This document shows, piece by piece, positions 3,093 to 47,698 of a DNA stretch of 64,000 nucleotides. The translations under genes were made by a program, and so were the position numbers. This DNA is from Escherichia coli (lineage in GTDB: Bacteria; Pseudomonadota; Gammaproteobacteria; Enterobacterales; Enterobacteriaceae). Under the pieces are notes generated by a model, which was not told the DNA's origin, did not search any database, and saw only the letters and a program-made list of their open reading frames with translations. How positions within the stretch are numbered: the stretch's first letter is position 1; every line of letters begins with the position of its first letter. The stretch is taken from NCBI RefSeq assembly GCF_003019035.1, contig NZ_CP027447.1, one strand, 5' to 3'.

Positions 3093-3737
3093 TCAAAATC
3101 CAAGACTATCCAACAAATCGTCCACCTGATCCTGACTGGCTACCACACCGGCTTTGCTGGTATCGACCTGAGGTCCATTAAGCAAACTCTGGTTTTCACG
3201 TTTTGGACGCGACTCCTGTTCCGGGATGTTTTCCAACAGCACCATCAGCAACTGACGTTCGATCTCCTGAATGACATCCATCATCCGCTTAATGACCTGC
3301 CCGGTGAGATCCTGAAAATCCTGCGCCATCATGATTTCCAGCAGTTGCGCGTTAGTAAAGCTGGTATGCACGGGGACATCTACCAGAAATTGCCGCGTAT
3401 CTGTTACCAGTTCTCGGGCGTCGGCAAGGTCGATCGGATCGGCAAACCAGTCATCCCAACGTTGGGTTAACGCTTTTGCTGATTTCTCCATTTGATCCTG
3501 ATGCGGTTGTGACGCCTCAACACTGTTCAGCGCCCGCTCCGCAGCCTGGGCGGTCATCTGCACAACATAGTACAAACGATCGCGCGCATCGGGGATGGCT
3601 TCCGCCGCTTCGGCAATGGCCTGATCCAGCCCCAGCTCCCGCAAACTGTCGCGCAGCATACGCGTCAGGCTGCCGATGCGCGCAATGATATCGCCAGCTG
3701 AATGCTCGTCAGCAGGTTTGATTGATGGTTGCATCAT
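3093..3737 (-). CDS. cheZ: Chemotaxis phosphatase CheZ
   Basis: Translation [24 protein letters not shown]... to ...DDLLDSLGF matches E. coli CheZ; start taken at MMQP inside the longer track ORF. Confidence 0.95.
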
Positions 3738-3747
3738 AGTCGCATCC

Positions 3748-5201
<1,454 letters not shown>

Positions 5202-5203
5202 CG

Positions 5204-6064
5204 TTAATCCTTACTTAGCGCATACACCGTCTGACCACGCAGCGTGAAGCGGCGCTCAAGGTGGCTAAAGTTTTCAGAGTGACCCGCAAACAGCAATCCG
5301 TCGGGTTTAAGGAGCGGAACAAAGCGGCGCAAAATCTCCTGCTGGGTAGTTTGATCGAAGTAGATCATGACGTTACGACAGAAGATCGCATCAAACGGCC
5401 CCGGCACGGTGTACTGTTTCGCCAGTAAATTCAGCGGGGCAAAATCAACATAGTTCGCCAGCTCCTGACGCACGCGTACCAGCCCTTCATGCGGTCCCGT
5501 CCCTCGCATGAAATACCGTTGCAGTTGCTGCGGCGTCAGGTTTTTCAACTCTTCATGGCGATAAATACCGCTTCTGGCTTTTTCCAGCACTTCGGTGTCG
5601 ATATCGCTGGCAAACACTTTCCAGCGTCCGGGCACGGTGCCCAATGTGTCAGCCAGCGTCATCGCAATGCTGTACGGCTCTTCGCCGGTCGAAGCCGCCG
5701 CGCTCCATACGCGATACTCGCCAGAACGGCGACGTGCGTGATCCGCGAGCAGAGGAAAATGATGCGCCTCACGGAAAAATGCCGTCAGATTCGTGGTCAG
5801 CGAATTGATAAACGCCTGCCACTCACCGCTGTGCTGATTAGATTCCAGCAAGTTCAGGTAATGACCGAAATCCGTCAGTCCCAGCGAACGCAAACGACGA
5901 ACCAGTCGGTTGTAAACCATGTCGCGTTTATGGTCGGCCAGGACGATCCCGGCTCGTTGATAGATCAATTGACTTATCCGCCGAAAATGCGCGTCGGAAA
6001 GCGCCAGGCGCTCGGTCATCTGTAACAATAAAGACGTTTGCCCACAGGGCAGAGATGAAGTCAT
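5204..6064 (-). CDS. cheR: Chemotaxis methyltransferase CheR
   Basis: 286-aa ORF matching CheR. Confidence 0.95.
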
Positions 6065-6082
6065 AGCGCCTTCTCAATCACT

Positions 6083-7684
6083 TCAGGATACCACTGGCGC
6101 AATTTGTAACTGCGCCGACTCATGTCGTGCTACTTCATGCTCTTCAAGGGTAAATACCGCCACGCGCGACGAAAGATGGTCGGCCTGATTCGCCAGTTGT
6201 TCTGTTGCCACCGCCGCTTCTTCTACCAGGGAGGCGTTCTGCTGTGTCACCTGATCCATCTGGCTGACAGCCTGTGCAACCTGCTCAATCCCCCGCCGTT
6301 GTTCTTCCGAGGCCGAAGCAATTTCTCCCATAATGTCGTTCACGCGGGTCACCGAACTGACAATATCAGTCATGGTCGCGGCGGCGTTATTCACCAGTTT
6401 CGAACCCTGCTGGACACGATTGACTGACTCTTCGATCAGCCCTTTGATCTCTTTTGCTGCCTGGGCGCTACGGCTGGCAAGATTGCGCACTTCACCTGCC
6501 ACTACCGCAAAACCACGCCCCTGCTCTCCGGCGCGAGCCGCTTCCACTGCCGCATTCAGGGCCAGAATATTGGTCTGGAAAGCAATGCCGTCGATAACGC
6601 TGATAATGTCGCCAATTTTTTGCGAGCTGGTGGCGATCTCCTGCATGGTGTGAGTCATGGTACTGACCTGAACACCGCCCGCCTGTGCCGTTGTCGCGGC
6701 ATTTTTTGCCAGTTCCGACGCCTGGCGCGCGTTATCGGCGTTTTGCCCTACCGTGGCGGTTAATTGCTCCATACTGGCGGCCGTTTGTGCCAGCGATGCC
6801 GCCTGCTGTTCGGTACGACTTGAGAGATCGTTATTGCCTGCGACAATCTCCGCGATACCAATGTGCATCTCCTGGCTTCCCTTACGCACATCACTTACCG
6901 TCCCACGCAAAGCCTGCTGCATGGTCTTCAGACTGGCAAAAATGGCGGTGATCTCATTGCGACCATACACCGCAATCGGACGCGCCAGATTACCCGCAGC
7001 AATGCTGTCAAAATGGCTACCGATAATGGCCAGTGGTTGAACAATCATCTTGCGCGTCCACCACAGCGCACTGCTGATGTAGATCGCCGCAACAATAATC
7101 ATGCTGATAAACACCAGCGCCGAAATCTGATAGTTACGCTGGCTTTGCGCACTGGCAGCTTCCAGCACATGGTTGATCTCCAGCTGCCAGGCCTCAAAGT
7201 TAACGTCAAACGCATTCTGTGATTCCTGCACCGGCGCAGTGAGGAAATCCGAAAGTTGATTACTTTCAAGCCAGGTCGCCTGATGTTCGAGATCGTTGTG
7301 CCAGCGGGCAAAACTTTTCTCCGTCTCTTTTTGCAACGCCCTGACGTGCTCGTTGCCCGCAGTCATCGCCATAAAACTTTTAAACAGCGTGGTGGATTGC
7401 GTCAGACTGGCGCGCGCCGTCGTCATCAACGTTTTAATGTCATCCGCCGGATAGCTAAGCGCCGTCAGAGTGCCCGCTTTGTTCAGCGCGGTACTGGCCT
7501 GTAACATTACCGCCCGAGTTTGCGCTAAAGCCGCACGTTGCTGATTGCTCTGCTCGACCTGATTCAGTCGTTGCACATCGTCGCGAAATGCCCAAAAAGA
7601 CATGCCGTTACTGCCAATCTGCAAGATCCCGCAGAGAATCAAAATTAAAAACAGCGTGGTCGAAATTCGAATACGATTAAACAT
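6083..7684 (-). CDS. tap: Methyl-accepting chemotaxis protein IV (dipeptide/pyrimidine receptor) Tap
   Basis: ORF MFNRIRISTTLFLILILCG... with conserved MCP signalling domain; start at second Met of track ORF. Confidence 0.93.
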   Translation of the reverse strand: MFNRIRISTTLFLILILCGILQIGSNGMSFWAFRDDVQRLNQVEQSNQQRAALAQTRAVMLQASTALNKAGTLTALSYPADDIKTLMTTARASLTQSTTLFKSFMAMTAGNEHVRALQKETEKSFARWHNDLEHQATWLESNQLSDFLTAPVQESQNAFDVNFEAWQLEINHVLEAASAQSQRNYQISALVFISMIIVAAIYISSALWWTRKMIVQPLAIIGSHFDSIAAGNLARPIAVYGRNEITAIFASLKTMQQALRGTVSDVRKGSQEMHIGIAEIVAGNNDLSSRTEQQAASLAQTAASMEQLTATVGQNADNARQASELAKNAATTAQAGGVQVSTMTHTMQEIATSSQKIGDIISVIDGIAFQTNILALNAAVEAARAGEQGRGFAVVAGEVRNLASRSAQAAKEIKGLIEESVNRVQQGSKLVNNAAATMTDIVSSVTRVNDIMGEIASASEEQRRGIEQVAQAVSQMDQVTQQNASLVEEAAVATEQLANQADHLSSRVAVFTLEEHEVARHESAQLQIAPVVS

Positions 7685-7729: not shown

Positions 7730-9391
7730 TCAAAATGTTTCCCAGTTTGGATCTTGTTCAGCAATTCGCAGTCGTGGCTGTGCCGGTGGTTGCTCACTGG
7801 CAGGACGGGATGGTGTTTGCGGTTTATTGGTGAGTGGGCTGGCTGTCAGACGGAACGCGGAAACCGCTTGCGTTAAACGACTCGCCTGTTCTTCCAGCGC
7901 AGCTGCGGCGGCAGCTGATTCCTGCACCAGCGATGCGTTCTGTTGCGTGACGCGATCCATTTCCGAAACCGCCAATGCGACTTGATCGATGCCACGGCTC
8001 TGTTCATCCGATGCTGATGCAATCTCGCCCATAATGTCAGTCACGCGGGTGACAGCATTGACGATATTGTTCATTGTTTCCCCGGCGCTTTCGACCAGCA
8101 CCGAACCGGTATCAACGCGCGAGACGGAGTCTTCAATGAGGGCTTTGATCTCTTTTGCCGCCTGGGCGCTGCGACTGGCAAGATTACGCACTTCGCCCGC
8201 CACCACGGCAAAACCACGGCCTTGTTCACCCGCTCGCGCGGCTTCAACCGCGGCATTCAGCGCGAGGATATTAGTCTGGAAGGCAATACCGTCGATAACG
8301 CTGATAATGTCGGCAATTTTCTTCGAACTATCGGCGATCTCATGCATCGTTTTCACTACGCCATCCACCACTTTGCCGCCGTGCTGGGCGGTGTCGGAGG
8401 CACTTTGCGCCAGTTGCGAGGCCTGGCGGGCGTTATCGGCGTTTTGCTTCACTGTCGCGGTGAGCTGCTCCATGCTGGCGGCAGTTTCTTCCAGCGCGGA
8501 TGCCTGCTGTTCAGTACGGGAGGAAAGATCGGTGTTGCCCGCCGCAATTTCACGGGTACCGGCATAGATGGCATCTGAACCTTCGCGCACATGAGTGACG
8601 GTGTCAGTCAAAGAGCGTTGCATATGTGAAACACTCTGCGCCAGGTCGCCCATTTCACTGCGCCCGTCAATGGTCAGGGTATTCGCCAGGTTACCACCGG
8701 CAATTTCGCGAATATGCGCAATAATTTTTGCCAGCGGTGTAAGCAACATACGGCGAATGCCGTACCACGCCACCAGCAGAATCAATATCACCACCAGCGC
8801 GATAACCGCCAGTTGCCACTGGGCAAATCGGTAATCATCTGCGTTGTCAGTGACGATATCGCGATACAGTTTTTCACTGCTGAGGGCGTACTGAGCAAAC
8901 GCTTCGCCCATTGCATTTTGCATTCCCTGGGTTGGCTGAGCGAAATAAGCTCCAGTATTGCCATAATCAAGATAATCAATCAGTTCAGTTAACGCTGTGT
9001 GATAGTTTTTATATTTTTCATCAATATTACGACTGGTAGCGACCATTTCAGGTAACGGTGCCATGCTTTTGAATTTTTTATAATGCGTCGCTGCCTGGGC
9101 CAATGTTTTCCTGGCGCTATCGAGCAATTCAACTTTGGCATTACTTTGCTGATTGGATGAATCCATCATCATCCGCACCGCTGAACGACTCAGGTTAATG
9201 CGCGTTTGCAGCATTAAATCCCATGTAGACGTCAGCTCGCCCTGCTGTTCCCGTAATTGATTGGAAACCACAAAGCTCTTCTGGCTATGGTGAAGGGAAG
9301 AAAAAAACAGACTGCCGGAAATAAGCTGTAACAGTGCGAATACCCCCAGCACCATTACCAACAGCGTGACTACGCGGATACGGTTAATCAT
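7730..9391 (-). CDS. tar: Methyl-accepting chemotaxis protein II (aspartate receptor) Tar
   Basis: [25 protein letters not shown]... ending NWETF pentapeptide; start at MINRIR within track ORF. Confidence 0.93.
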
Positions 9392-9422
9392 AAGGCACCT
9401 TCCTGAAAACAAGTTGATCTCG

Positions 9423-9449
9423 TTATCGGCAAGGAAGGGGGAAACTTTA
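9423..9449 (-). promoter_or_regulatory. Sigma-28 (FliA) class 3 promoter upstream of tar
   Basis: Minus strand reads TAAAGTTT-N11-GCCGATAA, an exact match to the sigma-28 consensus. Confidence 0.7.
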
Positions 9450-9476
9450 TTGCTGATGCCACCCGCCGCGAAATTG

Positions 9477-9507
9477 AAATAAAAAACCCGATGCGCAGAT
9501 CATCGGG
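9477..9507 (-). terminator. Intrinsic terminator downstream of cheW
   Basis: Hairpin CCCGATG...CATCGGG followed by a T-run on the minus strand. Confidence 0.6.
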
Positions 9508-9535
9508 TTCATTTCAATTGAGGAAATCGGGAGAA

Positions 9536-10039
9536 TTACGCCACTTCTGACGCCGCGCTATCTAACAGCGCCATCTCTTCGCTGTTCAGCAGTTTTTCGA
9601 TGTTCACCAGAATCAACATCCGGTCGCCCAGTGCGCCCAGTCCAGTGAGATATTCGGTTGAAAGCGTCACGGCAAATTCCGGTGCCGGACGAATTTGCTC
9701 CGCCGTCAATGAAAGCACGTCTGAAACGCCGTCAACCACGATGCCGACCACCCGCTGTCCGAGATTCAGGACGATAACTACCGTGTTGTCGTTATAGTCC
9801 ACATCCACCTGGCTGAACTTAATTCGTAAGTCAACAATCGGCACAATAACGCCGCGCAGATTCGTGACGCCTTTGATAAACGCTGGCGTGTTCGCAATCC
9901 GTGTCACCTGATCGTAGCCACGGATCTCCTGCACTTTCAGAATATCAATACCGTACTCTTCATCACCAAGGGTAAATACCAGAAATTCCTGGCCTGACGG
10001 CTCGCTGGCCAGCTTTGTTACATTCGTCATACCGGTCAT
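9536..10039 (-). CDS. cheW: Chemotaxis coupling protein CheW
   Basis: 167-aa [45 protein letters not shown]... matches CheW. Confidence 0.96.
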
Positions 10040-46162: not shown

Positions 46163-46272
46163 TAAGCCTGGAGATTATTGATCAACAATACTGCGTCATA
46201 AGAAATCTCTATTAGACAAAGATTTCAGTACCTGTTGGCATATTGCAAAAATAATACCAATACGGAATCGTC

Positions 46273-46752
46273 ATGTTCACGATTAAAACAGATGATCTCA
46301 CCCATCCAGCAGTGCAAGCATTAGTGGCTTACCATATTTCCGGCATGCTGCAGCAGTCTCCCCCCGAAAGCAGTCATGCTTTAGATGTGCAAAAATTACG
46401 TAACCCGACAGTGACATTCTGGTCAGTATGGGAAGGCGAACAACTCGCAGGAATTGGTGCGCTGAAGTTGCTGGATGATAAACATGGCGAGCTGAAATCA
46501 ATGCGTACCGCGCCTAATTATTTACGTCGTGGTGTCGCCAGTCTGATTTTACGCCACATTTTGCAGGTCGCCCATGACAGATGCCTTCATCGCCTGAGCT
46601 TAGAAACGGGTACACAGGCTGGATTTACGGCCTGCCATCAACTTTATTTGAAGCATGGTTTCGTTGATTGCGAACCGTTTGCTGATTATCAACTTGATCC
46701 ACACAGTCGATTTTTGTCATTGACGCTATGCGAAAATAATGAATTGCCATGA
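46273..46752 (+). CDS. yedL: GNAT-family N-acetyltransferase YedL
   Basis: 159-aa ORF at the yedL position. Confidence 0.85.
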   Translation: MFTIKTDDLTHPAVQALVAYHISGMLQQSPPESSHALDVQKLRNPTVTFWSVWEGEQLAGIGALKLLDDKHGELKSMRTAPNYLRRGVASLILRHILQVAHDRCLHRLSLETGTQAGFTACHQLYLKHGFVDCEPFADYQLDPHSRFLSLTLCENNELP

Positions 46753-47169
46753 GCCAGACGCAGCACATTCTTGCATTCGACGAGCTGCGCCTTTATTTAT
46801 TATCAGCCGCAAATGTCTTGTCCTTAGACGCTCTTTCCACATGCGCCACAAGAAACCTCTATTCCAGTGACACAATTATGCCTGATTATTTCCCTAGCCC
46901 GGAATATGAATAAAAACATCAAATAAGATGAAATTATCAAAATATTAATGTTGCGTCTGTGGTCGTAACAACAACCGACCTGGTGATGCGTGTTAAAGGA
47001 GACACTCTGATGTTCAGGGGGGTTATCACGTATACAGATCGTGGATGGCAGAAAACTTTCAGAATCAGGTTTCCATTTTAAACCAGAAATTGAGTGAGTT
47101 TGCCCCATCAATGCCCCACGCTGTGAGTTTGGATGTCATTAAACAAGCACAATCAACACGTAACACAAC

Positions 47170-47484
47170 CTACACCTGCATGCTCATCACTTCCTGATAC
47201 GCCGCTACCAGCTTATTACGCACCTGAATCCCCATTTGCATAGAAACTGAGGCTTTTTGCATATCGGTCATCACATCGTTTAGCGCCACGCCGGGCTCAC
47301 CGAGGGTGAATTTTTCTGCCTGGGTACGGGCGGCTGTTTGTGTATCGCTTATGCGATCGAGCGCGGCGTGCAGCTGCCAGGCAAAACTAATGGTCGGTTG
47401 CGGCAGTGATTCCTGCGCACGCGCACTCATCGCCGTGGTCTGTAACTGGCTGATAACCCCTTCAATCCCCTGTATCGCTGACAT
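47170..47484 (-). CDS. fliE: Flagellar hook-basal body protein FliE
   Basis: [38 protein letters not shown]... matches FliE; start at MSAIQ within track ORF. Confidence 0.94.
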
Positions 47485-47698
47485 TTTCATCTCCCGGATA
47501 ATTTCTGGTAGCAAAGCCTACCAGTAAGTCAATAAGACAAAGGCGCTAAATAGCAACAAAAAAACGGGTTTATTGGCGGATAGAAAAAAACGAAAGCACA
47601 AATAATGGGAGCGTCAATTTTTCGAGTTTGCTGACCCGGGAGTGAGTCTTGTTCCACTTTGCCAATAACGCCGTCCATAATCAGCCACGAGGTGCGCG

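Follow-up and report, generated by a model that had tools for sequence, protein, structure and literature searches.

We characterized the spacer between yedL and fliE in a 64,000-nucleotide stretch of Escherichia coli DNA (contig NZ_CP027447.1), referred to here as the window. The spacer was found to be 417 bp long, in agreement with the length and position given by the first-pass annotation (Table 1). Its left border is yedL, taken from the open reading frame (ORF) list of the window, which encodes a 159-aa GNAT-family N-acetyltransferase (Pfam Acetyltransf_1, E 1.1e-13) and is 98-99% identical to the yedL of K-12, E2348/69 and LR-03. Its right border is fliE (104 aa), which is 96-99% identical to other E. 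coli fliE genes. It was noted that the listed fliE ORF reaches a TTG at 47514; the 315-bp gene was taken, in accordance with near-identical RefSeq annotations. The wider interval between yedF and fliE holds yedK, yedL, a junction that we read as a deletion scar, and an integrase relic.

Table 1. Features of the yedL-fliE region in the window, with the comparison or remark attached to each.
Feature	Position	Strand	Basis or remark
Direct repeat, copy 1	46192-46213	+	22-nt imperfect repeat
yedL	46273-46752	+	ORF list of the window
yedL-fliE spacer	46753-47169		417 bp
Non-coding tail of the yedL module	46753-46841	no strand	99% identical to E2348/69, 90% to K-12
18-codon ORF	46771-46827		just downstream of yedL; equivalent at LR-03 799-855
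95-aa ORF	46824-47111	-	antisense to the integrase relic, spans the scar
Direct repeat, copy 2	46842-46863	+	inside the spacer
espR/yedN 3' flank, gene itself absent	46859-46888	-	end of left homology in BLAST, junction sequences
Putative deletion junction (scar)	46888/46889	no strand	BLAST against K-12 and O157:H7
AT-rich tract, distally upstream of espR/yedN (gene absent)	46889-47002	-	matched at 80-88% by alleles with the cassette
intG relic, last 49 integrase codons	47003-47149	+	tblastn against phage IdasGreatGrand Int
Phage attachment core	47167-47189	-	attL, attR and attP compared: lysogen UTAK-1, the phage, other genera with an unoccupied site
fliE	47170-47484	-	stop codon 47170-47172

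The espR/yedN gene in K-12 and O157:H7

The first-pass annotation placed yedN and yedM between yedL and fliE in K-12, and the MG1655 record (NC_000913.3) agrees. There, yedL (2010600-2011079) and fliE (2012700-2013014, minus strand) are separated by 1,620 bp, compared with 417 bp in the window, so that K-12 does not have the same short interval. The K-12 order yedL-yedN-intG-fliE (b1932, b4495, b1936 and b1937) includes the pseudogenes yedN (2011223-2012351, minus strand) and intG (2012502-2012780, plus strand), the latter annotated as 'cryptic prophage PR-G'. Alignment to K-12 and to the effector-bearing O157:H7, as had been suggested, found both to be colinear with the window apart from a single block at 46888/46889 (pairwise BLAST). 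In K-12 this block amounts to approximately 1,212 bp (about 8617-9840 of the K-12 derivative locus) and consists of the frameshifted DUF5503-LRR pseudogene yedN with 88 bp of its upstream region. The former yedM (116 aa) is the N-terminal fragment of this broken gene and a full-length DUF5503 match (Pfam, E 2.7e-81). K-12 is otherwise like the window in its identical flanking genes, in the integrase relic that adjoins the stop codon of fliE, and in the sequences on both sides of the cassette, but its relic has an 11-bp deletion near the integrase stop that the window lacks.

O157:H7 shares the locus and the cassette boundaries with the window, but possesses two intact 379-aa genes, espR3 and espR4 (T3SS effector leucine-rich repeat proteins), where the window has none. 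A tandem duplication of 1,958 bp holds these genes, along with a second copy of the 3' two-thirds of yedL and of the integrase stub. No EspR3 or EspR4 homologue was found in the full 64-kb window (tblastn, E ≤ 1e-3), and a tblastn search of the window for a surviving piece of the espR reading frame found none. The earlier description of yedN as IpaH-like holds for the shared leucine-rich repeats but not for the ligase, as EspR4 contains DUF5503 (E 4.6e-52) and LRR_4 only and the NEL E3-ligase domain was not found by Pfam in the intact EspR3/EspR4 homologues. The sole NEL-bearing match, P0053 (PF14496), shows 29% identity over 44% of the query and stands at the edge of the homology search. That search found EspR homologues in E. 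coli and Shigella only. EspR4 had no match among 50,697 phage records or in IMG/VR, and a phage cargo origin of the effector gene was set aside as unsupported.

The left-hand homology of the window with K-12 and O157 stops at query position 619, which corresponds to window 46891 (BLAST), and in both strains the espR/yedN stop codon lies a few bases past the equivalent of 46888. The junction, …GCCTGATTA/TTTCCCTAGCCCGG…, is identical in the window, E2348/69 and TUM1881, and the same junction was encountered in every cassette-free allele examined. Microhomology at this point is weak (TA/ATTA). Neither terminal inverted or direct repeats nor a target-site duplication was found at the cassette ends, and the idea of a mobile cassette was dropped for this reason. 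The 97 bp that contain the junction (46864-46960) have a GC content of 0.32, compared with 0.34-0.35 for the cassette and 0.45-0.55 for the neighbouring DNA.

An integrase relic beside fliE

The right part of the spacer encodes residues 386-434 of the integrase (Int) of the lambdoid Escherichia phage IdasGreatGrand at 82% identity (tblastn; E 1e-23 with the spacer as subject and 6e-19 with the whole window), and at the DNA level 46995-47169 shares 86% identity with the 3' end of the phage integrase gene. No integrase coding match upstream of residue 386 was found in the spacer by tblastn. In the intact phage Int, the Arm-DNA-bind_2 and Phage_integrase (PF00589) domains extend over residues 7-396. 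The relic has neither a start codon nor the catalytic core, and with residues 386-434 alone retained and no Pfam match for the ORFs of the window here, it falls short of a functional tyrosine recombinase. It runs towards fliE on the opposite strand and ends short of the fliE stop codon, as it does in K-12. Judged from its sequence, the relic is the equivalent of K-12 intG, or 'cryptic prophage PR-G', and it adjoins fliE in 5,159 of 5,426 complete E. coli genomes.

It was noted that the window retains, at 47139-47160, 11 bp around the old integrase stop (ACAAGCACAATC; ACAAGCATAGTC in the phage) that are deleted in K-12, O157, E2348/69, TUM1881, UTAK-1 and GCA_910664965.1. The window-type right-hand haplotype reads …CATCAAATAAGATGAAATTATCAAAATATTAATG…. 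Retention of these bases suggests that the window allele is a mosaic, joining a left half that is compact to a right half that is less eroded. Compared with the window, the other compact alleles show 99% identity on the yedL side of the spacer but only 89-93% in the relic. Segment by segment, the low identity of the right-hand block (91%) is due to the relic DNA, as fliE alone remains at the level given above.

A phage attachment core overlapping the end of fliE

The 23-bp core reads TGATGAGCATGCAGGTGTAGGTT in the orientation of fliE and overlaps both the stop codon of this gene and the codons that immediately precede it, and phage-chromosome homology extends beyond the integrase stop into the last fliE codons. 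In the lysogen UTAK-1, a P22-like prophage of approximately 38.7 kb lies between fliE and the old relic with a copy of the core at each end, and the pattern TGATG-NNN-ATGCAGGTGTAGGTT was found at both prophage ends and in the phage attP. In UTAK-1, fliE now ends in a TCC serine codon supplied by the prophage, and its former AGC version is found at the far junction. The window core differs from attP in this serine codon only (AGC versus TCC) and is identical to the bacterial copy in the UTAK-1 attR. An entire prophage was found at fliE in 6 E. coli genomes (among 5,426). By analogy with integration in other strains and genera, the window core would still be usable for phage attachment.

We surveyed the locus more broadly through a FliE-anchored scan of one genome per species, covering 80 species loci. 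A full-length integrase abuts fliE at 11 of the 80 loci, and integrase fragments are its neighbour at 7. At 18 loci the site was unoccupied, with yedF 52-405 bp away, a hairpin between the two genes and no integrase, while yedF was more distant, with other DNA between, at 17; neither yedF nor an integrase was present in the flank read at 27. The unoccupied layout, consisting of a converging yedF and a hairpin with no integrase-derived DNA, is seen for example in several Citrobacter species. The window does not have this layout, since yedK, yedL, the scar and the integrase relic all stand between its yedF and fliE.

Attachment sites at icd (phage 21 and e14) and at many tRNA genes are known to overlap the 3' end of the host gene, which integration restores. 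The fliE site is similar to these in that a phage copy of the host gene's end lies beside the integrase and the 23-bp core is present in attL, attR and attP. It differs in its target, fliE, and in that the window retains only the relic of an old integration. Literature searches on yedN/intG, on EspR3/EspR4 and on fliE with attB or prophage returned virulence-gene lists only and no description of a fliE attachment site. The 3' end of fliE is apparently a broadly used and previously undescribed phage integration site.

Open reading frames in the spacer

The first-pass annotation had listed the 95-aa minus-strand ORF as being of unknown significance. The ORF is present and open in the window allele, but in all seven other alleles compared (E2348/69, TUM1881, LR-03, K-12, O157, UTAK-1 and GCA_910664965.1) it is interrupted by a frameshift or stop codons. 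It is also left unannotated in 26 genomes with at least 99.4% identity over the region, and it has no Pfam match, nor has any of the four spacer ORFs. We regard it as a chance ORF and not a gene. The 18-codon ORF just downstream of yedL is called as a gene by PGAP at the equivalent position of LR-03-type genomes, under the label 'cyclic lactone autoinducer peptide' (an AgrD-type name). In the relic spacer of a Gram-negative organism, this label is probably a false-positive model match.

The open 95-aa frame and the PGAP call for the 18-aa peptide are the two observations in favour of a functional spacer, in which one of these ORFs would be at work, or else a regulatory element or small RNA serving yedL or fliE. 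We consider such a function very improbable given the broken and uncalled state of the longer ORF and its want of a family match. The spacer likewise gave no Rfam match at E ≤ 1, and a search of it for promoter-like or terminator-like sites found none. Between alleles, it diverges by 7-20%, compared with 1-4% for yedL and fliE, a pattern of unconstrained DNA. An expressed product from the spacer is not likely on these sequence grounds.

Distribution of the alleles among E. coli genomes

The locus had been described as variable, and the census of 5,426 complete E. coli genomes bears this out. The complete yedL-relic-fliE arrangement of the window was present in 132 genomes, including the well-known strains E2348/69, IAI39 and ATCC 8739, which are published complete genomes. 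These three share a colinear spacer and the identical junction with the window, but differ from it at 95.6-97.3% identity over the 1,242-bp yedL-to-fliE query. PGAP annotates an integrase fragment in E2348/69 and IAI39. The compact spacer is ordinary, already annotated E. coli strain variation, its parts being annotated in reference genomes.

The cassette-free junction was found in 1,146 of the 5,426 genomes, counted as genomes covering the junction query, and the espR/yedN cassette in 1,542. Approximately 1,076 of the cassette-bearing genomes have K-12-type cassettes, which are only about 85% identical to espR4. TUM1881 has the cassette-free junction and has also lost yedL through a deletion at TAGAC microhomology. 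Judged from an evenly spaced sample of the matches, the form without yedL probably makes up most of the 1,146.

Other rearrangements were noted at the same locus. In about half of the rows of an evenly spaced sample of the matches, the match was confined to the fliE end of the query. In the one such genome that was opened, Res13-Lact-PER12-33-A (3533-7462), yedK is truncated, an IS200/IS605 transposase gene and a DLP12-like emrE-ybcL-ybcM block stand between it and the integrase stub in the place of yedL and espR, and the stub is cut at a slightly different point. E. coli CUPS03 carries IS1 and a mer (mercury resistance) operon at the position of the espR cassette, of which about 70 bp of the right end is left; this insertion is another independent rearrangement at the yedL-fliE locus.

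Loss or gain of the espR/yedN gene

We then considered whether the window allele lost the gene or never possessed it. GCA_910664965.1 (3591-9505) contains three tandem DUF5503-LRR paralogues between fliE and yedK, with 48-54% protein identity to EspR4. Each paralogue has its own 73%-identical copy of the window tract 46904-47021, including about 20 bp of the integrase stub, as well as its own copy of the 3' flank. These paralogue-borne copies indicate that the gene, its flanks and the stub were contiguous long before the present allele diversity. A neighbour-joining tree of the tract 46897-47025 groups the four cassette-free alleles in a single clade. The sister of this clade is the UTAK-1 allele, which has the cassette, and the clade is nested among alleles that have it. 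The flank DNA behind this reading is short, unconstrained, fast-diverging and visibly recombinant, and the cassette-free alleles differ from each other by 7-16% over 129 bp with mosaic patterns. The lack of an espR coding remnant in the window and the weak microhomology at the junction also tell against a deletion. Escherichia albertii, E. whittamii, Escherichia sp. E1V33 and other outgroups contain unrelated genes between fliE and yedF, and therefore cannot polarise the gain or loss of espR.

From the paralogues with their flanks at the locus, the AT-rich composition, the flank tree and the identical junction with neither terminal repeats nor a target duplication, it is probable that the espR/yedN gene was present first and was then deleted, which favours loss rather than gain. 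The identical junction in all cassette-free alleles examined points to a single event. Of the two earlier alternatives, a deletion or a pre-insertion state, deletion is favoured for the effector-like gene, and a wholly unoccupied site is excluded by the presence of the intG relic and the attachment core.

A pre-insertion state of the gene alone, in which this allele never had espR/yedN and the cassette entered at 46888/46889 in an ancestor of the K-12/O157 type, was judged unlikely. It would account for the clean junction with no residual coding sequence. The cassette-free alleles of E2348/69, IAI39 and ATCC 8739, strains of phylogroups B2, F and A, which are distant from one another and two of which branched early, also fit it, as does the 7-16% divergence that marks the polymorphism as old. 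However, an inserted cassette of this kind would have neither terminal repeats nor a target-site duplication, would share its AT-rich composition with both flanks, and would need to have entered a locus where strongly diverged paralogues already have these same flanks. The nesting of cassette-free alleles within cassette-bearing ones in the flank tree also speaks against it, and no donor is evident, with EspR homologues found in E. coli and Shigella only and none in phage collections.

Recurrent loss, by unequal crossing-over in a tandem espR array or by integrase-mediated excision instead of one illegitimate deletion, seems far less plausible still. Tandem arrays do occur at the locus, in O157 and in GCA_910664965.1, and phages actively use the site for attachment. 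However, in the arrays the 3' flank is joined to the tract at its integrase-proximal end (about 47022) and not at 46889, and unequal crossing-over could therefore not yield zero copies with the junction of the window; it was rejected because the array junctions are unlike the scar. No att-like or direct repeats bounding the cassette were found, and all cassette-free alleles examined have one and the same junction.

The anatomy of the locus, its homologies, the frequencies of the alleles and the phage use of the site in other strains and genera are observed; the direction of the event (loss rather than gain) and its mechanism we infer as follows. Temperate phages of this integrase family insert themselves at the end of fliE and bring a substitute for that end, and one old prophage would have decayed to the integrase stub. 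The EspR-family LRR gene (yedN in K-12, espR3/espR4 in O157:H7) would later have been lost in the lineage of this allele through one old illegitimate deletion, perhaps by recombination at about 2-5 bp of microhomology, which would have left the 3' flank of the gene abutting the distal upstream tract at 46888/46889. The spacer is likely to be a decaying non-coding relic, composed of the tail of the yedL module, the scar, the integrase stub and the attachment core.

The yedL module and the wider block

The two copies of the 22-nt imperfect direct repeat (86% identity, spacing 650) bracket a 650-bp yedL module. UTAK-1 possesses a single hybrid copy of the repeat and no yedL, which suggests that yedL itself behaves like an insertion/deletion cassette. 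In GCA_910664965.1, a remnant of the yedL start is fused to a different short ORF. Both yedK, the bacterial model protein for HMCES/SRAP, and yedL are absent where yedF abuts fliE, as in several Citrobacter species, Kosakonia, Phytobacter and other species. The yedK of Enterobacter cloacae lies past an integrase fragment, an acyltransferase gene and an impB-like fragment, next to yedD, where the variable zone comes to its far end. This position could equally fit an ancestral gene or phage cargo. We tentatively propose, as a possibility to which we give less than even weight, that the 3' end of fliE is an Enterobacteriaceae phage hotspot and that its repeated occupation and decay built the yedK-yedL-(espR)-intG block of E. 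coli.

Implications

The short spacer would be better annotated as a pseudogene relic (intG) than as an ORF. Variation at this locus explains the varying espR3, espR4 and yedN calls between strains in virulence-gene screens, and the locus offers a compact teaching case of island erosion through stepwise deletions. As a live prophage attachment site, the fliE stop codon can confuse synteny comparisons. If the hotspot proposal is true, the 'core' genes yedK and yedL would be old cargo or hitch-hikers of the fliE site, as would the DLP12-like emrE-ybcL-ybcM block that a considerable proportion of strains carry at this locus, and the window allele would represent one late stage in the erosion of the block at this site.
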